Program-made: the position numbers and the translations under genes
Notes under the pieces: generated by a model
Databases searched by the model: none
The model's input: the letters and a program-made list of their open reading frames with translations, nothing else
What the model was told of the DNA's origin: nothing
Source: Actinomycetota bacterium
GTDB taxonomy: Bacteria; Actinomycetota; Thermoleophilia; Solirubrobacterales; 70-9
Assembly: GCA_038040415.1 (NCBI GenBank)
Contig: JBBPIK010000006.1
Span: 8,763 to 72,762, forward strand
Length of the DNA stretch: 64,000 bases
Direction of reading: 5' to 3'
Part shown: piece by piece, positions 3,223 to 60,841 of the stretch
Layout of the letters: each line of letters starts with the position of its first letter
Numbering within the stretch: position 1 is the stretch's first letter

Positions 3223-4484
3223 GCGACCTGGGCCGAGACGTCATCTCGCGCACGGACGCCCAGGTGATCGGCACCGCCCTGGTGGAACGCACCGCGGCCG
3301 GACAGGCGCTTGCGCCCGAGCAGGAGCTGATGACGATCAACATGGGGCCGCACCATCCGGCCACCCACGGGGTGCTGCGGCTGCTGGTCAGCCTCGAGGG
3401 GGAGGTGGTCCGCGACCTGAAGCCGGTGGTGGGCTACGTGCACACGGGGATCGAGAAGAGCTGCGAGGACAAGTCCTACTGGAAGGCGATCCCGTTCGTG
3501 GAGCGGATGGACTACCTCTCCTACTTCTTCAACATGGAGGCGTTCGTCGGCTGCGTGGAGCGCCTGCTCGAGCTGGAGATCCCCCCGCGCGCCAAGTACC
3601 TGCGAGTGATCCACCTGGAGCTGAACCGGATCCACTCGCACCTCGTCTGGCTCGGAACCGGGGCCCTCGACCTCGGCGCGATGTCGATGTTCTTCTACTG
3701 CTTCCGGGACCGCGACCGGATCCTCGACCTGTTCGAGCTGTCGACCGGGCAGCGGATGCACACCCGCTACTTCCAGGTCGGGGGCGTCTTCGAGGACATC
3801 CCCGTCGGCTTCGAGCGCCAGGCCCGCGCCTTCTGCGCCGAGATGCCCTCGCGGCTCGATCAGTACGAGGCGATCCTCAACCGCAACGAGATCTTCTTGC
3901 AACGGACGAGGAACGTCGGCGTCGTCCCGCGCCAGCGACTGCTGGACCTGGGGGTAACGGGGCCGCTGCTGCGGGCCGCCGGCGAGCCGTGGGACCTGCG
4001 CAAGGTTGATCCCACCCTCGCCTATGCGGACTTCGACTTTCAGATTCCGGTGGGCACCGTGGGCGACGGCCACGATCGCTACCGCGTGCGGGTGCAGGAG
4101 ATGCGCGAGTCGGTGCGGATCGTCGAGCAGGCCCTCGACGGGCTGCCCGAGGGCCCGTGGATCGCCGACGACCGCAAGGTGGTGCTGCCGCCGCGCGACG
4201 AGCTCTCGACCTCGATGGAGGCCTTGATCCACCACTTCAAGCTGGTCACCGAGGGCTTCCGGGTGCCGCCGGGCGAGGCCTACTACCCGGTCGAGGGACC
4301 GCGCGGAGAGCTCGGCTGCTTCGTGGTCGCCGATGGCTCGGCGAAGCCGGCCCGAGTCCACTTCCGCGACCCCTCGTTCGTCAACCTGCAGGCGCTTCGC
4401 GACATGTCCGTGGGCGGCTACGTCGCCGACCTGATCCAGAACCTGGCGATGCTCGACCCGATCCTGGGAGGCATCGACCGATGA
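3219..4484 (+). CDS. nuoD: NADH-quinone oxidoreductase subunit D
   Basis: The 421-aa product has MGPHHPATHGVLRL, YVHTGIEK and a C-terminal DPILGGIDR. The start overlaps nuoC as ATGA. Confidence 0.95.
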   Translation: MSDLGRDVISRTDAQVIGTALVERTAAGQALAPEQELMTINMGPHHPATHGVLRLLVSLEGEVVRDLKPVVGYVHTGIEKSCEDKSYWKAIPFVERMDYLSYFFNMEAFVGCVERLLELEIPPRAKYLRVIHLELNRIHSHLVWLGTGALDLGAMSMFFYCFRDRDRILDLFELSTGQRMHTRYFQVGGVFEDIPVGFERQARAFCAEMPSRLDQYEAILNRNEIFLQRTRNVGVVPRQRLLDLGVTGPLLRAAGEPWDLRKVDPTLAYADFDFQIPVGTVGDGHDRYRVRVQEMRESVRIVEQALDGLPEGPWIADDRKVVLPPRDELSTSMEALIHHFKLVTEGFRVPPGEAYYPVEGPRGELGCFVVADGSAKPARVHFRDPSFVNLQALRDMSVGGYVADLIQNLAMLDPILGGIDR

Positions 4485-6550
4485 TGGACGCCGGGGCTAG
4501 GGACGAAGTCCCGGTGCACGCGGCTGAACCTGCCGCCCCGTCCGCGCCCGAACCCGCCGGAAACGTAGCCGAAGGCGAGGCTTCCGGCGGAGTTATTCCC
4601 GAGTTGCACGAGGTCGACGTGCCCGACGAGCTGCGGGAGGAAATCGAGACGGCGATGTCCCGCTACCCCGAGATCCGCTCGGCCGCGCTTCCTGCGCTCT
4701 GGGCCGTTCAGCGCGAGTACGGATGGTGCACCCCGGACGGCGTCCGCCAGGCGGCGGCGGTGATGGGGGTGACCCCCGGCTACCTCGAGTCCCTCGCGAC
4801 CTTCTACGACCTCTTCCGGACGACTCCGGTGGGGCGCCACCAGGTGCTCGTCTGCCACAACATCTCCTGCTGGATGCGAGGGGCGGACGACCTGCTCCGC
4901 GCCTTCAGCGAGGCCGCCGGCGCCGATGCCCACGAGGCCGATCACGGAGGCGCCAGCTCGGCGGACGGGGAGGTCTTCGTAATGGGCTTCGAGTGCCTCG
5001 GGGCGTGCGACATCGCGCCGATGGCCTCGATCGACGAGCGCTACTACGGGCCCCTGGACGCCGGCGACGCGGAGACCGCGGTGGAGCAGCTTCGCTCTGG
5101 CGCCGAGGTCCTACCGGACAAGGCGCTCGCCGACCGCCCCGCAGCCGGCGGCCCCGAGCCCGAACCCGCCCCTGAAACGCGGATGCTCTTCAAGAGCCTC
5201 GACGAGCCGGGGCTGGCCTCGATCGACACCTACCGCCGCCTGGGCGGATACAGCTCGCTGGAGCGCGCCTTCCGCGACCTGGAGCCGGAGGAGCTGCTTG
5301 GCGTGCTGGAGGAGTCCGGGCTCCGCGGCCGCGGCGGGGCCGGCTTCTCGATGGGAAGGAAGGCCTCCTTTCTTCCCCGCGGCGAGATGTCCAAGTACCT
5401 GTGCTGCAACGCCGACGAGTCCGAGCCGGGCGCGTTCAAGGACCGCGAGCTGATGCAGAAGAACCCGCACCAGCTGATCGAGGGGATCGCGATCGCGGCG
5501 CTGGCCGCCGGGGCCGGCTGGGGATTCGTGTTCATCCGGGGCGAGTACGCGGCGGTGGCCGACATCCTCGACCGCGCGGTCGCCGAGGCGTACGAGGCGG
5601 GCTACCTGGGCGAGAACATCCTCGGCAGTGGTTCCCGCGTCGAGGTGGTCGTCCACCGCGGCGCCGGCGCCTATATCTGCGGCGAGGAGACGGCGCTCCT
5701 CGACGCGCTTGAGGGAAAGCGCGGCAACCCGCGCCTGAAGCCGCCGTTCCCGGCGATTCAGGGCCTCTACGGAGGGCCCACCCTGATCAACAACGTCGAG
5801 ACGCTGTCCAACGTGCCCCACATCGTCGCCAACGGCGCCGAGTGGTTCAAGGGGCTCGGCACCGAGCAGTCGCCCGGCACCAAGGTCGTCTCGGTGTCGG
5901 GCTGCGTCCAGCGGCCCGGCAACTACGAAGTCGCACTCGGGATCCCCACCCGGGAGCTGATCTACGGGCTAGCCGGCGGCCCGCCGCCCGGACGCGAGGT
6001 CAAGGCCTGGTTCCCGGGTGGTTCCTCGGCGCCGATCCTAACCGCGGCCGAGCTCGACCTCCCATACAGCTTCGAGGCAATGGCCGACGCGGGCTCGATG
6101 CTCGGCTCGGGGTCGATCATCGTCGCCGACGACTCGATCTCGATTCCGGAGCTGGCGCTGCGCACGGCGCGCTTCTACCACCACGAGTCATGCGGAAAGT
6201 GCACGCCGTGTCGCGAAGGCACCAACTGGACGGTGAAGATGCTCGAGCGGGTGATCTCGGGCGAGGCGACCCCGATGGACCTCGACATCATCGCCTCGGT
6301 GCAGGAGAACATCATCGGCCACTGCCTGTGCGTGCTCGGTGACTCGATGGCGATGCCGGTTTCGAGCATGGTGGCGAAGTTCCGGGAGGAATTCGAAGAA
6401 CACATCCGACGAGTCGCAAGCGACTCGCCGGGTTCGGGCGCCGACGGGGCGGCAGGTTTGCACGCCCAGGGAGCCGAAGGCGACCGGTCATCCGGCGAAG
6501 CCGGAGGCGGGACTTCGTCCCTAGCCCCAGCGAGCGGTCGGCATGCGTGA
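4481..6550 (+). CDS. nuoEF: fused NADH-quinone oxidoreductase subunits E and F (single ORF)
   Basis: The frame of ORF 4157..6550 is open throughout. The NuoE part carries ALPALWAVQREYGW, VCHNISCWMRG and FECLGACDIAPM. A linker (DRPAAGGPEPEPAPETR) follows. The NuoF part carries GLRGRGGAGFSMGRK, NADESEPGAFKDR, ICGEETALL, ESCGKCTPCREG and CVLGD. The ATG at 4481 overlaps the nuoD stop, and in-frame TTG 4604 or GTG 4619 are alternative starts lying just after PR1 copy 1. Confidence 0.85.
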   Translation: MMDAGARDEVPVHAAEPAAPSAPEPAGNVAEGEASGGVIPELHEVDVPDELREEIETAMSRYPEIRSAALPALWAVQREYGWCTPDGVRQAAAVMGVTPGYLESLATFYDLFRTTPVGRHQVLVCHNISCWMRGADDLLRAFSEAAGADAHEADHGGASSADGEVFVMGFECLGACDIAPMASIDERYYGPLDAGDAETAVEQLRSGAEVLPDKALADRPAAGGPEPEPAPETRMLFKSLDEPGLASIDTYRRLGGYSSLERAFRDLEPEELLGVLEESGLRGRGGAGFSMGRKASFLPRGEMSKYLCCNADESEPGAFKDRELMQKNPHQLIEGIAIAALAAGAGWGFVFIRGEYAAVADILDRAVAEAYEAGYLGENILGSGSRVEVVVHRGAGAYICGEETALLDALEGKRGNPRLKPPFPAIQGLYGGPTLINNVETLSNVPHIVANGAEWFKGLGTEQSPGTKVVSVSGCVQRPGNYEVALGIPTRELIYGLAGGPPPGREVKAWFPGGSSAPILTAAELDLPYSFEAMADAGSMLGSGSIIVADDSISIPELALRTARFYHHESCGKCTPCREGTNWTVKMLERVISGEATPMDLDIIASVQENIIGHCLCVLGDSMAMPVSSMVAKFREEFEEHIRRVASDSPGSGADGAAGLHAQGAEGDRSSGEAGGGTSSLAPASGRHA
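4493..4600 (+). repeat. PR1 palindromic repeat, copy 1 (scaffold only, no cassette)
   Basis: GGGGCTAGGGACGAAGTCCC...CCTGCCGCCCCGTCCGCGCCCGAACCCGCCG...GCCGAAGGCGAGGCTTCCGGCGGAGTTATTCCC aligns by eye with the copies at 6398, 11507, 31620 and 40615. Confidence 0.85.
6398..6528 (-). repeat. PR1 palindromic repeat, copy 2 (inverted, one cassette)
   Basis: The reverse complement reads GGGGCTAGGGACGAAGTCCCG-CCTCCGGCTTCGCCGGATGACCGGTCGCCTTCGGCTCCCTG-...CCTGCCGCCCCGTCGGCGCCCGAACCCGGCG-hairpin-TCGGATGTGTTC. The copy lies inside the 3' end of the nuoEF ORF. Confidence 0.85.
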
Positions 6551-10573: not shown

Positions 10574-10969
10574 GTGTCCACCGAGAACGTCCAAATCACC
10601 CGCAGACTGGTCGAGGCCTTCAACGATCGAGACATCGACTCGGTGGTCCAGGACATGCAGCCGGACGTCGAGCTGCATCCGCTGCGAGCCCAGCTCGAGG
10701 GAAAGGCCTACCGGGGACACGACGGGGTGCGCGAGATGCTGGCTGACTTCGACCAGGACTGGGAGTACGTTCAGGTCGACGCCGAGGAGTTCCGGGACGC
10801 GGACGACGAGGTCGTCGTGCTGGGCCGCCTCCGCGCCCGCGGGCGGGCCAGCGGCATCGACCTCGACGTGCCGATGGGGTTTGTCTGGACCCTCCGCGAC
10901 GGCAAGGTGGTGCGGATACAGTCATTCTCCGAGCAGGCGGACGCGCTGCGCGCCGCGGGCCTCGTGTAG
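10574..10969 (+). CDS. NTF2/SnoaL-like small protein (paralog family, copy 1)
   Basis: The 131-aa product starts VSTENVQITRRLVEAFNDRD and ends EQADALRAAGLV. It has the same architecture as the ORFs at 39903, 60000 and 60399. It is preceded by the 12-mer GCGAGATACTGG, which ends 7 nt before the start. Confidence 0.7.
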   Translation: MSTENVQITRRLVEAFNDRDIDSVVQDMQPDVELHPLRAQLEGKAYRGHDGVREMLADFDQDWEYVQVDAEEFRDADDEVVVLGRLRARGRASGIDLDVPMGFVWTLRDGKVVRIQSFSEQADALRAAGLV

Positions 10970-10993: not shown

Positions 10994-11692
10994 ATGGTGG
11001 AGGTCGCCTTCTTCGCCGGGGCGATCGGCGCCGTCGCCGGGGCGGTGGGCGTGATCGCGTTGCGGAACCCCTTCTACAGCGTGCTGGCGCTGGTCGTCCA
11101 CCTGGTGGCCCTGGCCGGGCTGTTCTTGTTGCTGTACGCGCAATTCGTCGCCGCCGCCCAGGTGGTCGTCTATGCGGGCGCGGTGATGGTCCTGTACGTC
11201 TTCGTGGCCGCCTACGTGGGCGAGGTCGAGGAGCCGATCTGGGAGCCGATCCCGGGCCAGCGATTCCTGGCCCCACTGCTGGCCGCGGCGCTCTTCGTCG
11301 AGCTCTCGATCGCGATCCTGGGCACCGGGCTGTCTTCCCTCGACAGCGAGGGGCCGACGTTGCCGATCGGCTTCGGATCTCCGGAGGCGATCGGCAACCT
11401 GCTGCTGGAGCGCTTCCTGGTCGTCTTCGAGGCCGCCTCGATGCTCCTCCTCGTCGCCGCAGTCGGGGCGGTCGTCCTGGCGGGACGAACCAGGGTGGCA
11501 CCCGCCGGGGCCAGGGACGAAGTCCCGCATCCGGTTTCGCCGGATGATCGGTCGCCTTCGGCTCCCTACGCGGCTGAGCCTGCCGCCCCGTCCGCGCCCG
11601 AACCCGCCGCATCCGAGCAAGCTCGGATGACCGGTCGCCCTTCGGGCTCCCTGGTAGGCGAAGGCGAGGCTTCCGGCGGAGGGGTTCCCTAA
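10994..11692 (+). CDS. nuoJ: NADH-quinone oxidoreductase subunit J with repeat-encoded C-terminal tail
   Basis: The NuoJ core runs about 165 aa ([60 protein letters not shown]). About 67 further codons then run through PR1 copy 3 to a TAA that overlaps the nuoK ATG. Confidence 0.85.
11507..11689 (+). repeat. PR1 palindromic repeat, copy 3 (scaffold plus two cassettes)
   Basis: The scaffold is the same as copy 1. A roughly 42-bp cassette is inserted twice: CATCCGGTTTCGCCGGATGATCGGTCGCCTTCGGCTCCCT at 11528-11567 and CATCCGAGCAAGCTCGGATGACCGGTCGCCCTTCGGGCTCCCTG at 11610-11653. Confidence 0.85.
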
Positions 11693-11991
11693 TGGACGTC
11701 ACCTGGTATCTGGTTCTCTCGGCGCTCCTTTTCGCGATCGGCGCCGCCGGCGTGCTGATCCGGCGCAGCCCGCTGGTGATCCTGCTCTGCCTCGAGTTGA
11801 TGCTGAACGCGGGCAACCTCGCCCTGGTCGCCTTCGCCCGCGACCGGGGCGACCAGGACGGCCAGGTGTTCGCCTTGATCGTCATGGTCGTCGCCGCCTG
11901 CGAGGTGGTGGTCGGGCTGGGCCTGATCGTGGCGATGTTCAGGCGCCGGCTGCCGCTGAACGTCGATGAGATGAGGGACCTCCGCGGGTGA
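11692..11991 (+). CDS. nuoK: NADH-quinone oxidoreductase subunit K
   Basis: The 99-aa product has three TM segments and [17 protein letters not shown]. The start overlaps nuoJ as TAATG. Confidence 0.9.
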
Positions 11992-30722: not shown

Positions 30723-31646
30723 CTACCAGTGGGCGTCGTGATGCTCCATGACGCCGAGGCCGCGCTCGAGCGCCAGCCCCCCCGGAAGGGTGCCCGAGAA
30801 GCTGCCGAAGGGCTGACGGTACGTGTAGCGGACGAGGAGGCGGTTCTCCTGCTTTCGCCGCTCGCACTCGCCACTGAACTCGAGCCGCGACCCGTCGTCG
30901 AAGGCGATCGCCTCCAGGCCCTCGAAGCTGACGGGGCCCGGCTCGAAGGGCTCGCCGTCCACCCAGATCGCCCGCTCGGAGCGCTGTGGCGGGTCGTTGA
31001 TGCCGCTGACCAGGTTCCAGCCGACCGAGCGCCCGTCGCCGGTGCGGCCGACGCCGGCGGACCAGCTCCACACCGTGTGGCGAGGGTGATAGCCGGCCGA
31101 CTCGTCCTCCATCCCGCGCGCCTCGACCCGCCAGCGGCGCTCGCCGATGCGGACGTCGCACTCCACCGGGACATCGGCCCGCTTTCGGGTCCACACGTAC
31201 TCGCCCTCCCCGTTGGGACACACCGCCTCCACCCACCCGCCGGCGCCCGCGCGGAGGAAGGCCCGCACCTCGCCCTCGCTCCGGCGCGCCTCGATCCGCA
31301 CCAGCGAACCTTCGTCGGGCGCATAGTTGACCAGGCCTCCCTCGCCGTCGCCCGTTTCCGTCCAGACCTCGCCTCGCGCGCCTGGGAGCCGCAGCCGGGT
31401 GCGCTCCCACATCTCGCCGCGCTCGCGGTCCCAGATCGCCCAGAACGTCTGCCCGAGCTTTCCGACCTGGACCCGCGCGGCGCAGAGGAGCAACTCGTCG
31501 GAATAGGCGCCCAGGTAACGCCAGCGCTTGCGCCACCGGCCGCCGCGCCGCAGAGGCATCGGATTGGGGGGCAACGGCAGGTCGGGGCGGCCCGGACCGG
31601 GTCCGCGCCACGGAAGGCCCGGGCTGGCGACGAAGTCGCGATTCAC
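30723..31646 (-). CDS. DUF2804-like protein
   Basis: The 307-aa product has RWRYLG near the N-terminus and a C-terminal GVMEHHDAHW, as I recall for DUF2804. The GTG at 31646 lies inside PR1 copy 5, and ATG 31559 (MPLRRGG) is an alternative start. Confidence 0.6.
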   Translation of the reverse strand: MNRDFVASPGLPWRGPGPGRPDLPLPPNPMPLRRGGRWRKRWRYLGAYSDELLLCAARVQVGKLGQTFWAIWDRERGEMWERTRLRLPGARGEVWTETGDGEGGLVNYAPDEGSLVRIEARRSEGEVRAFLRAGAGGWVEAVCPNGEGEYVWTRKRADVPVECDVRIGERRWRVEARGMEDESAGYHPRHTVWSWSAGVGRTGDGRSVGWNLVSGINDPPQRSERAIWVDGEPFEPGPVSFEGLEAIAFDDGSRLEFSGECERRKQENRLLVRYTYRQPFGSFSGTLPGGLALERGLGVMEHHDAHW

Positions 31647-31727
31647 GTGCTTACGGCCTGCCGCCCCGTAACGCGCCCTGACCCGCCGACACCGGACGTG
31701 AAACGGAGGATGTCGGCGGAGTTGTTC
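31620..31727 (+). repeat. PR1 palindromic repeat, copy 5 (divergent loop insert)
   Basis: CGGGCTGGCGACGAAGTCGCG...CCTGCCGCCCCGTAACGCGCCCTGACCCGCCG-acaccggacgtgaaacggaggatgt-CGGCGGAGTTGTTC fills essentially the whole spacer between the carboxylase stop (31730) and the DUF2804-like gene. Confidence 0.8.
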
Positions 31728-39101: not shown

Positions 39102-39770
39102 CTAGGAGTCTTCGCGCTCGGGGTCCTGCTCGCCGGCCTGCGCGGGCTCCTCCTCCGCGGCGTCGGCGGCGGGCTCAGCTTCCTCTGCGGCGGGCGCTGC
39201 CTCCTCGCCAGACGGGGCGACCGGGGCTTCCTCCGCTGCCGGCTGGGCGGCGGCCGGGGCTTCCTCCGCTGCCGGCTGGGGGCTGGCCGGGGCTTCCTCC
39301 GCTGCGGGCTGGGGGGCCTCAGTGGGCTCCTCCCCTGGAGTGGGCTCGTCCCCTGGCGTCGATTCCGCGGCTGCGGGAGCCTCCTCCCGCCCCGCGGCGC
39401 CCTGGGGGCGGCGCCCGCCCCGAGCCGGGGGTGCGCCGACGGCGCTCTGCGGCGCCGACGGGACGATCGCCGGCGAGCGTGGGTCGACCTTGAAGATCCG
39501 GAAGCGCAGGACGCCGTCGGCAATCCGCAGGTTGTGGTTCAGATCGTCGAGCAGCCCTCCATCCGTTTCGAAGCGGAAGAAGCGATAGTCGGCCTCGGTG
39601 CGCTGCTCGATCTCATAGGCGAGCTTGCGCGTACCCCAGGACGTGTCCTGCTTGAGGGAGCCGCCTGACTCGATCCGCGTCCGCGCTTCGGCCGCGATCT
39701 GCTCCCGGCGTTCATCCGTGATGTCGGGATCGAGCATCAGGACGAGCTCGTATTCGCGGGAGGGACTCAA
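39102..39770 (-). CDS. rpsF: 30S ribosomal protein S6 with long acidic repeat-containing C-terminal extension
   Basis: The start codon is TTG. The S6 core runs about 100 aa (EYELVLMLDPD...WGTRKLAYEI...YRFFRFE). It is followed by about 120 aa of Ala/Pro/Glu-rich sequence that includes three copies of PQPAAEEAPA-type units. Confidence 0.85.
   Translation of the reverse strand: MSPSREYELVLMLDPDITDERREQIAAEARTRIESGGSLKQDTSWGTRKLAYEIEQRTEADYRFFRFETDGGLLDDLNHNLRIADGVLRFRIFKVDPRSPAIVPSAPQSAVGAPPARGGRRPQGAAGREEAPAAAESTPGDEPTPGEEPTEAPQPAAEEAPASPQPAAEEAPAAAQPAAEEAPVAPSGEEAAPAAEEAEPAADAAEEEPAQAGEQDPEREDS
39221..39319. repeat. 3 x 33-bp tandem repeat inside the rpsF tail
   Basis: The unit CCGGGGCTTCCTCCGCTGCCGGCTGGG-NNNNNN occurs at 39221, 39254 and 39287. 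An adjacent 2 x 18-bp repeat (AGTGGGCTCSTCCCCTGG) lies at 39321-39356. Confidence 0.85.
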
Positions 39771-40370: not shown

Positions 40371-40940
40371 ATGGGCAGCGGATCCCGCATTCGCTGGCGC
40401 AAGGTCGCCAAGCTCGCTCTCGGCGTGCTCGGCTGCCTGGCCTTGGTCGTGGGCCTGCCGAGCCTCATTCGGCGCCCCGAGCCGCCGCCGCTGGAGCCGG
40501 ACATCGGGCTGGCACACCTAGCGACGTCCCGGGAACCCGCGCATTCGACCCAGCGACCGGCGCCCGGCCCCGATCGCCGTGACGCCAAGACCCAAGGCAG
40601 GCCAGGCGGTCGGGCCTGCCGCCCCGCCAGCGCCCTAACCCGCCGCATCCGGCTCCGCCGGATGACCGGTCGCCTCCGGCTCCCTGGTAGCCGGAGGCGA
40701 GGCTTTCGGCGGAGTTGTTCAGGGACCCGATCCCAAGGCCGGCGGCGCCATGCCGGCGCCGGCCGTCCGACCCGTCGCGAACGGGGTCAACCCTCGACCG
40801 GCTCGACCGTCACCGACGTCTCGGCTCAGGTCCCCGTCCCCCCTGCCGGCGCGGCGCCTCCGCCGCCAACTGCCCCGCTGCGAGCCCAAGCGCAGGCGCC
40901 GCAGCCGGCCGTCGCGTCGGAGTTCGGATTCGAGCGCTGA
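40371..40940 (+). CDS. questionable ORF (N-terminal TM anchor; body runs through PR1 copy 4)
   Basis: The 189-aa product has only one convincing feature, the N-terminal hydrophobic segment (KLALGVLGCLALVVGLPSL). The rest is Arg/Pro-rich and partly encoded by the repeat. Confidence 0.3.
   Translation: MGSGSRIRWRKVAKLALGVLGCLALVVGLPSLIRRPEPPPLEPDIGLAHLATSREPAHSTQRPAPGPDRRDAKTQGRPGGRACRPASALTRRIRLRRMTGRLRLPGSRRRGFRRSCSGTRSQGRRRHAGAGRPTRRERGQPSTGSTVTDVSAQVPVPPAGAAPPPPTAPLRAQAQAPQPAVASEFGFER
40615..40720 (+). repeat. PR1 palindromic repeat, copy 4 (5' hairpin missing, one cassette)
   Basis: CCTGCCGCCCCGCCAGCGCCCTAACCCGCCG-CATCCGGCTCCGCCGGATGACCGGTCGCCTCCGGCTCCCTG-GTAGCCGGAGGCGAGGCTTTCGGCGGAGTTGTTC. 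Confidence 0.75.
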
Positions 40941-57393: not shown

Positions 57394-57963
57394 ATGAGTG
57401 ACCTTCAAGCGGCGCGCGCCACGCTCTTGGCCGAGCTTCGCGAGCACGCTCTGGTGTTCGGCGAGGTGACCCTGTCGAGCGGCCAGCGCGCCTCCTACTA
57501 CGTCGACGCCCGCCGCGCGATCCTGCGCCCGGCAGGCTTTCGCGCCGTGGGCGAGCTGCTCGCCGGCGCGGCGCGGGAGCTCGGCGCCGCCGCCGTCGGG
57601 GGGCCGGTGATGGCGGCGATCCCGCTTGCCTGCGCAGCGATAGGCGTGCCCGGCGGCGAGGGACTGGTCGGATTCTTCGTCCGCAGCGATCGCAAGCAGC
57701 ACGGCCTCCAGCGCTGGATCGAGGGACCGGTGGAAGCCGGAGCGCGCTGCCTGGTGGTCGAGGACACGGTGACCACCGGGCGCTCAACGGTGTCGGCGAT
57801 CGAGCGGATGCGCGCTGAGGGCCTCGAGGTGGCGGGGGCCGTCTGCGTGGTCGATCGCCTCGCCGGCGGTGGCGAGGCGATCGCCGATGCGGCCGGCGCG
57901 CCGTTCAAGGCGCTGGTCACGATCGACGAGCTCTATCCCGACCGACCCGACCGGGACCTTTAG
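57394..57963 (+). CDS. pyrE: orotate phosphoribosyltransferase
   Basis: The ATG at 57394 begins the ORF. FGEVTLSSGQRASYYVD and the PRPP-binding loop CLVVEDTVTTGRS are present. Confidence 0.9.
   Translation: MSDLQAARATLLAELREHALVFGEVTLSSGQRASYYVDARRAILRPAGFRAVGELLAGAARELGAAAVGGPVMAAIPLACAAIGVPGGEGLVGFFVRSDRKQHGLQRWIEGPVEAGARCLVVEDTVTTGRSTVSAIERMRAEGLEVAGAVCVVDRLAGGGEAIADAAGAPFKALVTIDELYPDRPDRDL
57889..57963 (+). repeat. direct repeat A (authentic pyrE 3' end)
   Basis: GCGGCCGGCGCGCCGTTCAAGGCGCTGGTCACGATCGACGAGCTCTATCCCGACCGACCCGACCGGGACCTTTAG is repeated at 58557-58629. Confidence 0.9.
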
Positions 57964-58556: not shown

Positions 58557-58629
58557 GCGGCCGGCGCCGTTCAAGGCGCTGGTCACGATCGACGAGCTCT
58601 ATCCCGACCGTCCCGACCGGGACCGGTAA
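58557..58629 (+). repeat. direct repeat B (orphan pyrE 3'-end fragment)
   Basis: About 69 of 73 aligned positions match repeat A by eye. There is a 2-nt deletion (GC), and the stop is TAA instead of TAG. No upstream pyrE body is present. Confidence 0.9.
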
Positions 58630-59284: not shown

Positions 59285-59591
59285 TGGCGATCTGACTCCA
59301 GTATCTCGCGTCATGGCGGTGCCGATACGGAACACGTCAATTCAGGGGGAAGCGCCGCCACTCGGGGAAAGCGACGCTCCCAGCGAGGGAACATCCCGAA
59401 ACGAAGACCGTCCCCTCACGTCTTGAAAGCTCGGAACCCGCCCCGCCTGGAGTCATCGGCGTGCCTCAGGCCAGTCAGACGATTGACCGAGTACCCCGAC
59501 CTTCCGCCTCCCAATCGGCGTGTACTTGAAACCGCTTACAGGAGATGTGCGCCGGATGGCGGGCAAGGTCGACGTTCTCTTGTGACGTCGC

Positions 59592-59996
59592 CTATTCCCG
59601 GCGCCCGGCGGCTTCGAGAGCTTCGGCGTGGCTTCCGTAGACCTCACCTCGCACCACGAGACCATCCTCGACCGTGTAGACGAACGCCGCTCGCAACTCG
59701 ACCACGACTCGCTGCCCCGCATGCGCCCTCGCTGGACCGTCGTCACAACGACTTGCGTATCACCCGCGTCGATGAAGCTCTCAAGCTCGTTGGTCCAGGC
59801 CTCATAGGCATCGGTCCACTCGGCGAAGAACTGCATGAAGCCCTCGCGGCCGTGAAACACCGGTTGCCCGGACCATGCGGACCACGACTCCATATCCCAG
59901 ACGAGGTCGGGCGAGACCAGTTCCGACAGCTCCTGGGTCTCGGCGAACTCGCTCAGGACGCGACGCACGATCTCCCTCCACGTTCTCCTGCGACAT
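59592..59996 (-). pseudogene. frameshifted NTF2/SnoaL-like paralog (copy 5)
   Basis: The reading frame is split over three frames. MSQENVEG is in ORF 59802..59996. RRVLSEFAETQ...VVTTVQRGRMRGSES is in ORF 59453..59968. ELRAAFVYTVEDGLVVRGEVYGSHAEALEAAGRRE-stop was read by hand from 59592-59699. Confidence 0.6.
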
Positions 59997-59999
59997 GGC

Positions 60000-60395
60000 C
60001 TACTCCTTGAGTCCGGCGGCTTCGAGGGCGTCGTCGGCGTTCGGGAAGGCTTCCAGCGAAAGGATTGTCCCGTCGCGAATCATCCACAGGTGCCCGTTTC
60101 GGGTCTCGAACTCGACGTCGGAGCCCTTCGGCCGCATGCGGTTCTTGACGATGACCACGACCTGATTCCCGCTTTCCAGGACCTCCGACGGCTCCATGAT
60201 CCAGGCATCAAACGCTGCGCGGACGTCGCGAAAAACCGCTTGCGGCGTTTCGCGTCCCCGATGCGTCCCGGCGAGGGGTCCACGCTTGAACGTGATCTCG
60301 ATGTCTGGGTGAGCGTCACGAAACGCGGCGTCCCAGTCGTTCCGGTTGAGCGCGTCGTACACGCGCCGGATGATCTCCACGTTCTCCTCCGACAT
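60000..60395 (-). CDS. NTF2/SnoaL-like small protein (paralog family, copy 4)
   Basis: The product starts MSEENVEIIRRVYDALNRND and ends ADDALEAAGLKE. It lies 3 nt downstream of copy 3. Confidence 0.7.
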   Translation of the reverse strand: MSEENVEIIRRVYDALNRNDWDAAFRDAHPDIEITFKRGPLAGTHRGRETPQAVFRDVRAAFDAWIMEPSEVLESGNQVVVIVKNRMRPKGSDVEFETRNGHLWMIRDGTILSLEAFPNADDALEAAGLKE

Positions 60396-60398
60396 CGC

Positions 60399-60791
60399 TT
60401 ACTCCGACAGCCCGGCGGCTTCGAGGGCTTCCGCTTCCTGATCGAGCATGAACATCTCTCCGCGCGCGATGAAACCCTCATCGTCAAGCGTCCAGACCGC
60501 CCAGGAGCCGGTGTCCAGCTCGATTCCGCTTCCCGCCCCACGAGCGAACATCCTTTGCCGCACGAGCACTTTGTCGCCGTTCACCCGAAACTCGAGCGGC
60601 TCGATCCTCTGTTCCGCGAACGCGTCAGGCTCCATCCACGCTCGTATCGCCTCCCGACCCTTAGGTGGCGATTCAATACCCGGACGGATGAATTCAACGT
60701 CCGGTCGAGAAAGCGCCATCGCCGTGTCGAAATCGCCGCGGTTGAACGCCTCGTAGCCGCGGCGCATGATCTCCACGTTCTCCTGCGACAT
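60399..60791 (-). CDS. NTF2/SnoaL-like small protein (paralog family, copy 3)
   Basis: The product starts MSQENVEIMRRGYEAFNRGD and ends EAEALEAAGLSE. GCGAGATACTG lies upstream, with the same 7-nt spacing counted from the 12th motif position. Confidence 0.7.
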   Translation of the reverse strand: MSQENVEIMRRGYEAFNRGDFDTAMALSRPDVEFIRPGIESPPKGREAIRAWMEPDAFAEQRIEPLEFRVNGDKVLVRQRMFARGAGSGIELDTGSWAVWTLDDEGFIARGEMFMLDQEAEALEAAGLSE

Positions 60792-60841
60792 CGCCCGTGC
60801 AGTATCTCGCCGGTGGCGTTCTCGCGCAGCAGGTATGGACG

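Follow-up and report, generated by a model that had tools for sequence, protein, structure and literature searches.

Introduction

Selfish repeats that lie in frame within protein-coding genes are best known from Rickettsia and from a few other reduced or pathogenic genomes. In this study we describe PR1, a small hairpin-rich repeat, and the copy of it that encodes the C-terminal tail of the complex I subunit NuoF in an Actinomycetota bacterium of the order Solirubrobacterales. The window, i.e. the whole stretch of DNA that was analysed, comprises 64,000 nucleotides (assembly GCA_038040415.1, contig JBBPIK010000006.1, positions 8,763 to 72,762 of the forward strand) and has a GC content of ~70%; all coordinates below refer to it. 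The nearest relatives of its NuoF are proteins of metagenome-assembled genomes (MAGs) labelled Solirubrobacterales or uncultured Actinomycetes.

Several described systems come close to this arrangement. The Rickettsia palindromic elements (RPEs; Ogata et al. 2000) are, as far as the two sources cited here describe them, palindromic repeats inserted in frame in unrelated housekeeping genes (PMC10969869, PMC3184786). Mycobacterial interspersed repetitive units (MIRUs; Supply et al. 1997) appear in the corresponding parts of the literature as repeats of 40-100 bp, often in tandem and oriented with the operon (PMC3184786, PMC12548453). In Coxiella burnetii the elements QMITE1 and QMITE2 overlap the 3' ends of functional genes, and an in-frame QMITE2 adds 33 amino acids to EnhC (PMC5896051).

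The initial annotation of the window had likened the repeat at the end of nuoF to the RPEs. The likeness is borne out by in-frame PR1 copies in the Lhr helicase, Der, NuoG and a tandem ABC ATPase. We consider it probable that PR1 and a second module nested in it, B, are selfish non-autonomous repeats, and that the nuoF copy is passively translated into a tolerated, disordered appendage on a surface-exposed terminus.

The NuoF reading frame and its junction with nuoG

NuoE and NuoF are encoded by a single open reading frame (ORF) in the ORF list (4481-6550, plus strand), with the Pfam domains 2Fe-2S_thioredx, Complex1_51K, SLBB and NADH_4Fe-4S all in one frame. The NuoF part begins at ~5183 and its conserved core ends with KFREEFE at 6377-6397. 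As annotated, the motif KFREEFEEHI is reached at ~6406 (codons at 6377-6406), and the first in-frame stop is the TGA at 6548-6550. Homology to NuoF ends at ~6406-6415; the NADH_4Fe-4S domain stops 48 residues short of the ORF end, and similarity to solved NuoF structures (PDB) stops at residue 409-415 of 455. The last 50 codons (6398-6547, plus strand) form a C-terminal tail without homology to the solved structures, and a protein homology search with these 50 residues gave zero candidates. The tail is predicted to be disordered, as had been anticipated: for residues 416-455 AlphaFold2 gave a predicted local distance difference test (pLDDT) score of 27-33 and no secondary structure. The solved NuoF proteins likewise extend 15-20 residues past their last aligned helix.

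Back to the preceding stop in the frame of nuoG itself, no start codon comes earlier than the nuoG ATG at 6543. This ATG overlaps the delayed nuoF stop in the ATGNNTGA arrangement; within ATGCGTGA (6543-6550, plus strand) the ATG occupies 6543-6545 and the TGA 6548-6550, a spacing of -8 nt. Among the three coupling motifs reported as enriched is this -8 NTGNNTGA spacing (PMC12548453). The overlap, already pointed out in the initial annotation, was retained in 11 of 11 tails that were read as DNA, as ATGNNTGA/TAA or as GTGA. The spacer 5' of nuoG holds at best a weak Shine-Dalgarno-like GAGCGG, as read by eye from the sequence.

The same read-through to a stop overlapping the nuoG start was observed in 11 independent assemblies from different projects, all without a stop in the tail, which measured 150, 114, 111, 126 or 135 nt. 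An assembly or sequencing artefact could in principle hide a real stop or frameshift at ~6400-6420, since obvious frameshifts do occur in some related long-read MAG loci (split genes in L003; P0008). In one tail (L137), also from a long-read MAG, a -1/-2 frameshift pair deletes CTAG and may be a sequencing error. No stop or frameshift before 6420, which would have refuted the annotated read-through, was found. Because the 11 assemblies share an identical read-through with zero stops, we regard sequencing error as excluded and give an artefact almost no credence.

Upstream in the same ORF, nuoE and nuoF follow each other without an intervening stop. In one relative (L057) they are separate genes with an 8-nt overlap, and many homologs of 620-720 aa are fused. 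An origin of the fusion through PR1 was considered and rejected, as the PEPEP stretch at this place belongs to ancestral NuoE and a small deletion removed the stop region. The fusion thus looks like the outcome of that small deletion, unrelated to PR1.

The tail is encoded by an antisense PR1 copy

A complete PR1 copy, interrupted by module B, lies on the minus strand at 6402-6532, antisense to nuoF. The covariance model R1 (cmsearch) matched this strand at 6471-6532, from the start of the model, and at 6402-6465 (model positions 32-105), and blastn aligned 6429-6528 in inverted orientation with 11507-11606 (88% identity over 100 nt, E = 9e-25). Since the two model matches span the copy and are split by B, we place its extent at ~6402-6532. 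The claim that an inverted repeat copy encodes the tail was thus confirmed, and the copy is real, although its limits run slightly further than the 6398-6528 first given. Further partial matches to the nuoF repeat were found in the window at 4489-4594 and 40604-40720.

The PR1 consensus of ~110 nt was derived from aligned copies found with an exact 21-mer (GGGGCYAGGGACGAAGTCCCG), which occurred in 51 stretches from 21 MAGs among the species-representative genomes scanned, all of them uncultured Actinomycetes or Solirubrobacterales. It has four parts: the 5' box GGGGCTAGGGACGAAGTCCCGG, which is invariant, a middle that varies, the conserved stretch CCTGCC...GCCCGAACCCGCCG, and a 3' hairpin that bears a GCC-GAA-GGC mini-hairpin at its apex and is followed by GGAGTTATTC. 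In the nuoF copy the 5' box GGGGCTAGGGACGAAGTCCCG (6508-6528, minus strand) is an exact match to the 21-mer and forms a CTAG-containing hairpin with GAA as its loop. The 3' hairpin is a short variant (CCGGCGAGTCGC TT GCGACTCGTCGG; 6406-6431, minus strand), flagged as a stem-loop, which encodes RRVASDS on the nuoF strand. In the family alignment 96.6% of the cells of the 3' hairpin were paired, with 8 pairs and 59 cells altered on both sides, and its covariation score was reached by 0 of 500 shuffles. For the middle third no consistent structure was found; the structural support is for the 5' box and the 3' hairpin.

Searches of known families gave little. In Rfam 15 no match in the window reached the gathering threshold, and four element-rich loci gave only chance-level matches away from the elements. 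The sense PR1 peptide, compared by phmmer with 1.84 billion representative proteins, had 12 weak matches, mostly to short ORFs. In the literature on Thermoleophilia, Solirubrobacterales, related genera and repeat elements we found no description of PR1. We concluded that PR1 is a previously undescribed family of small hairpin-rich repeat.

Module B (CCTCCGGCTTCGCCGGATGACCGGTCGCCTTCGGCTCCCTG, 41 nt; 6467-6507, minus strand) stands in place of 5 nt, a net gain of 36 nt or 12 codons. In the nuoF tail B is present in the window and in P0001; the tails of L029 and L055, which differ from the window at ~2% and ~10% of aligned positions, have the 5 nt instead. The window carries further B modules, of which two (+36 and +39 nt) lie in the nuoJ copy and one lies in the copy at 40.6 kb, and a scan of soil metagenome contigs yielded 78 B copies. 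These lie mostly at the apex of the PR1 3' hairpin or just past the 5' box; some are solitary and some lie inside another B. The first stem of B covaries (CATCCGGC/GCCGGATG, CGTCCGGC/GCCGGACG, GATCCGAGC/GCTCGGATC), and its 3' half is conserved. Its recursive nesting hints at insertion into hairpin loops. At an orthologous site three soil contigs differ in their content, with B alone, B with a small hairpin in its loop, or B with a whole second B nested in it (L085, L092, L093).

From such nesting one may go further and picture PR1 and B as recursively nesting mobile hairpin modules that target hairpin loops, have been shaped in their surviving members to suit coding, furnish essential proteins with tails and linkers, and are read through under selection. 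The compatibility would follow from B adding 36 or 39 nt and from PR1 and B offering a single sense frame free of stops and, in most cases, one or two such antisense frames; start/stop overlaps would be kept at junctions, and ribosomes would have to unwind the hairpins to reach the next cistron. We hold this to be a tentative possibility, on balance doubtful. If true, the system keeps feeding disordered tails and linkers to essential proteins throughout a clade of soil Solirubrobacterales, including four complex I subunits.

Insertion versus an ancestral tail

The usual NuoF tail in Solirubrobacterales, carried by most of them among 120 NuoF homologs, reads AAIEAGRAAAPRPLDESxTDAxPVPLGAGA (AAIEAGRAAAPRPLDES...). 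Orthologs with cores 93-96% identical lack the element and have different tails. In the cluster with cores 93.6-97% identical to that of the window four tail states coexist: the widespread AAIEAGR... tail; the antisense-PR1 tail, either containing B or lacking it; a short ETIARARDEVPVQAA tail, which is a truncated sense PR1 5' box; and this same short tail with B added (ARDELPHPASPDDRSPTAPYAA). Because the close orthologs without the element have another, order-wide tail, the alignment of related nuoF-nuoG junctions, as proposed in the initial annotation, shows that the NuoF tail of the window is an insertion or replacement and not an ancestral feature of the protein. The coexistence of four states therefore shows that the PR1 tail displaced an older one and that the nuoF-nuoG junction was struck more than once. 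The earlier idea that the repeat had landed on or replaced the nuoF stop, with coupling to nuoG kept, thus stands for the replacement and the coupling; what was displaced, however, was an ancestral tail of ~30 aa and not just a stop, and 12 of the new codons come from the nested B.

We weighed the alternative that the tail is a functional or ancestral segment of NuoF, for example a linker or docking peptide, and that its likeness to other loci is secondary, perhaps copied elsewhere from it. The tail is in frame in more than 16 orthologs, in which the motifs RRVASD, GAAGLHA and TSSLAP remain recognisable. Against this, tails that are frame-shifted or built on a different hairpin are tolerated (P0005, P0026, P0028, P0034), the tail is absent in orthologs of 93-96% core identity, it is predicted to be disordered, and other PR1 copies are translated on the opposite strand or in other frames. 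Nor does the sense peptide recur among proteins beyond the dozen weak matches given above. The same tail was not found in any ortholog free of PR1; all loci that carry the antisense-PR1 tail also hold PR1 copies elsewhere. Together with the substitution pattern described below, a tail that lacks codon-position periodicity and has a low GC content at third codon positions (GC3), these observations leave this explanation very improbable.

A tree of the NuoF cores, built by the unweighted pair group method with arithmetic mean (UPGMA), was too shallow to tell a single from a repeated origin of the antisense tail, all cores being at least ~80% identical. The special 3' hairpin that the antisense nuoF copies share argues for their orthology. 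A stop-loss was also considered, because the element end GAATAACTCC, read as reverse complement, would put TAA in the nuoF frame where the nuoF copies have TAC or CAC. As many family members have GTGATTC or GTGGTTC there, an ancestral stop is unnecessary and the idea was dropped.

The tail does not evolve like a protein under selection

We compared substitutions by codon position among seven orthologs. At positions 1, 2 and 3 the nuoF core showed rates of.052,.030 and.225 and the start of nuoG rates of.062,.027 and.200, whereas the NuoF tail showed.116,.082 and.124. The core had a GC3 of.92-.98 and the tail one of.61-.76. The tail thus evolves unlike a protein under purifying selection, with no codon periodicity and a low GC3. 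Across nine orthologs 98% of the hairpin that encodes RRVASDS was paired and two of its pairs were compensatory; the window itself holds an A·C intermediate. Conservation is thus seen in the hairpins, as nucleic acid, and in a frame that stays open as far as the nuoG start, not in the peptide.

Copies, positions and orientation of the PR1 family

Model R1 found five PR1 copies in the window, three of them at nuo gene junctions. The copy between nuoD and the NuoE core (4489-4598, plus strand, sense; cmsearch 123 bits) was recognised also by junction comparison. If the ATG at 4481, which overlaps the nuoD stop as ATGA (4481-4484), is the NuoE start, the N-terminal ~37 residues of NuoE come from this copy. 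A TTG at ~4601, in frame and 3' of the GGAG of the element, could also serve as the start. Relative to L028 and L001, ~96 nt between two CCCGAG repeats are missing from the window at this junction, where a PR1 insertion was followed by a deletion between the repeats. In L057, which lacks the nuoF tail, a decayed PR1 3' half (...NPAAPGVADEEAAGPEIRPT...) was seen at the same junction (positions 5247-5400 of L057), and this remnant suggests that junction insertions are old and erode with time.

The copy at the nuoJ-nuoK junction (11503-11687, plus strand, sense) carries two nested B modules (11528-11568 and 11610-11653) and encodes a NuoJ tail of ~66 residues; NuoJ (10994-11692) overlaps nuoK by TAATG at 11690-11694. 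In L029 and L055 this copy is without B, and L056 has neither PR1 nor B there. The overlaps at the three copy-bearing junctions, ATGA at nuoD-nuoE, ATGCGTGA at nuoF-nuoG and TAATG at nuoJ-nuoK, correspond to spacings of -4, -8 and -1, which are the three reported as enriched for translational coupling (PMC12548453).

The fourth copy (31616-31727, plus strand; cmsearch 77.9 bits) is flanked by two minus-strand genes and adjoins the end of a biotin carboxylase-like gene, immediately after its stop. Its variant 5' hairpin, GCGAC-GAA-GTCGC against the usual GGGAC-GAA-GTCCC, is a compensated pair and marks a subfamily present in other loci. The fifth (40596-40720, plus strand) is partial, lacks the 5' box and contains a B module at 40646-40686.

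Across 481 kb of loci from related Solirubrobacterales MAGs, which had been selected for holding at least one PR1 copy, model R1 gave 104 matches, or about one per 5-10 kb. Among 73 full-length family copies, 36 lie in sense and 12 in antisense orientation between co-directional gene pairs, a ratio of 3:1, while seven are convergent intergenic and one is divergent. The sense frame GARDEVP... is open in 61 of the 73, and the other two sense frames are interrupted by TAGs in the 5' box. Stops are absent from the three antisense frames in 45, 33 and 32 copies (44-62% per frame). An antisense insertion thus stays open about half of the time by chance. For this reason the open frame at nuoF, which the initial annotation had singled out and which is indeed open, is not remarkable and needs no special explanation.

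Nine of the 73 copies lie in sense with same-frame coding sequence on both flanks, and many more overlap gene ends. In three proteins Pfam domains flank the in-frame copy on both sides. The Lhr helicase (L042) has one copy after the DEAD domain, inside RecA1 and before the SAT motif, and another before Helicase_C; in Der/EngA (L017/L032) a copy separates the two GTPase domains, and the linker of a tandem ABC ATPase (L018/L031) holds another. NuoG of three relatives (L015/L054/L002) carries a copy in the linker RWQER...IGTYRDLW, where the sequence of the window is unrelated. An in-frame copy was also seen in a CofG/CofH-like protein (L050). Multi-domain housekeeping proteins sometimes hold two or three copies each, with tandem partial 3' modules (GEASGGVIP-type repeats).

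Other observations in the window

Between nuoI and nuoJ lies a SnoaL-like ORF of 131 aa (10574-10969), and a SnoaL_2 gene occupies the same place in L003, L055 and L056. Units of ~400 nt that share 77-86% identity are repeated three or four times in tandem at 59568-60794; read on the minus strand, they start with MSEENVEIIRRVYDALNRNDWDAA..., which suggests tandem small SnoaL/NTF2-like paralogs akin to the ORF in the nuo operon. A 33-nt tandem repeat at 39133-39337 (GGGGCTTCCTCCGCTGCCGGCTGGG...; 3-4 copies, 79-91% identity) probably encodes a low-complexity protein segment. A direct repeat of 61 nt, 98% identical, was found at 57898-57958 and 58564-58624, 666 nt apart.

Discussion

We propose that an antisense copy of PR1, as a dispersed hairpin-rich repeat, took over the nuoF-nuoG junction and replaced the ancestral NuoF tail of ~30 residues, and that the 41-nt hairpin module B would have joined this copy later, in the lineage of the window. 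Because the antisense strand of the nuoF copy has no stop in the nuoF frame, ribosomes would continue across it and extend NuoF by ~45-50 disordered residues rich in Gly, Ser and Ala. Termination at the TGA overlapping the nuoG ATG would keep the two genes coupled through termination-reinitiation. The peptide itself would be under no protein-level selection, and we infer the tail to be neutral. Selection would act mainly, through the nuoF-nuoG coupling, on ribosomes reaching the nuoG start, as premature termination would separate the cistrons by ~140 nt of stable hairpins. PR1 would survive where its translation is harmless, i.e. at protein termini, in inter-domain linkers and at intercistronic junctions. 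Support for passive translation of a selfish repeat comes from the anatomy of the copy, its membership in the family, the polarity of the insertion, the in-frame copies elsewhere, the missing codon periodicity and the predicted disorder.

Several results weigh against it. In PR1 no terminal inverted repeats were found, its 5' GGGGCTAGGGAC... and 3' ...CGGCGGAGTTATTC ends being non-complementary, and comparison of filled with empty sites at nuoF-nuoG, nuoJ-nuoK and nuoD-nuoE and at three B insertions revealed no target-site duplication. The filled sites differ from the empty ones by a replacement, of 5 nt for B or of the whole tail for PR1, and not by a simple insertion. No transposase partner and no RAYT (Y1 transposase) gene turned up, the ORFs of the loci not having been screened for transposases. 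Since inverted repeats, duplications, a transposase and simple insertions are all wanting, it is copy number and presence/absence polymorphism that suggest mobility, and on these grounds the PR1 family is probably mobile and non-autonomous. Moreover, taken as a whole the tail accumulates substitutions (0.108) about half as fast as the synonymous sites next to it, and it is thus not evolving freely. The compensatory changes between orthologs, the 3:1 sense bias and the 7:1 convergent excess could fit a function at the level of RNA equally well.

Such a function would make PR1 a cis-acting RNA or DNA structure maintained by the host, with the nuoF tail a by-product of placing it between nuoF and nuoG; it might stabilise intercistronic mRNA or mark a site of its processing, act as a weak terminator or attenuator, or bind a protein. 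The strong covariation of the 3' hairpin, also in the orthologous nuoF copies, would be expected of it, as would the invariant 5' box, the retention of copies at the same nuo junctions across species of 78-97% NuoF identity, the slow tail and the orientation bias (36:12 in sense between co-directional genes, 7:1 convergent). In sense, PR1 also has a T-rich tract after the 3' hairpin that was flagged as terminator-like. However, compensatory change can be mimicked by quasipalindrome-templated mutation or by gene conversion, and similar junctions hold the element in either orientation (antisense at nuoF-nuoG, sense at nuoD-nuoE and nuoJ-nuoK). Numerous copies lie within coding regions, where ribosomes would unfold the structure, near relatives do without the element at nuoF-nuoG, and PR1 matches nothing in Rfam. 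The recursive nesting and variable copy content of PR1 and B are those of selfish DNA. We therefore consider a host-maintained structure unlikely.

With PR1 and B taken as selfish repeats, translation of such elements now extends at high density to free-living, high-GC, uncultured soil Actinomycetota, where it affects the core respiratory genes for NuoE, NuoF, NuoG and NuoJ. The filled, empty and nested states at one junction form a natural series for studying tails and linkers made by repeats, and also how coupling survives insertions and how elements without terminal inverted repeats are mobilised. For annotation, it matters that gene callers disagree on starts and ends near the elements and that repeat peptides inflate protein families with low-complexity extensions.

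Among the described systems, REP (repetitive extragenic palindromic) sequences, their bacterial interspersed mosaic elements (BIMEs) and the REPIN-RAYT system share with PR1 the GC-rich hairpin modules, high copy number, mosaic structure, preference for 3' and intercistronic positions over promoters, and use as insertion targets (PMC3116915, PMC3337134). REP sequences are extragenic by definition and REPINs are inverted doublets (PMC3116915, PMC3337134), whereas PR1 copies are composites of ~110 nt in a single orientation and often lie within genes. Hairpin modules apart, at least 9 of the 73 copies lie in frame within ORFs as single-orientation composites, which sets PR1 outside this class. 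The QMITEs are alike in that a small repeat supplies C-terminal residues, but they have terminal inverted and direct repeats and PR1 has neither (PMC5896051). Judged as a MITE (miniature inverted-repeat transposable element), PR1 lacks both the terminal inverted repeats and the target-site duplication.

The MIRUs, as far as their published summaries go, are likewise actinobacterial, GC-rich, small and intercistronic, with ORF ends that overlap the flanking stop and start so that coupling is kept. PR1 has this intercistronic position with stop/start overlaps at nuoD-nuoE, nuoF-nuoG and nuoJ-nuoK. It departs from the gene-sense orientation and separate mini-ORF of the MIRUs, as the nuoF-nuoG copy is antisense and fused to NuoF, and it occurs also deep within genes; the comparison is one of architecture, not of sequence.

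In function PR1 is much like the RPEs, which in the portions of the literature cited are dispersed, hairpin-forming or palindromic repeats of ~100-150 nt, fused in frame at tolerated positions of unrelated housekeeping proteins. Both traits are found here, a hairpin consensus of ~110 nt and in-frame copies in Lhr (two sites), Der, the ABC ATPase, NuoG and the NuoF and NuoJ tails. The hosts, high-GC soil Actinomycetota versus AT-rich Rickettsiales, are of unrelated lineages, and the sequences are probably unrelated too; given the lineage and the 70% GC, homology between PR1 and the RPE families is implausible. Unlike the RPEs, PR1 is modular, with B nesting in PR1 and in B itself, many of its copies lie right at operon junctions with start/stop overlaps, and it is translated from both strands.

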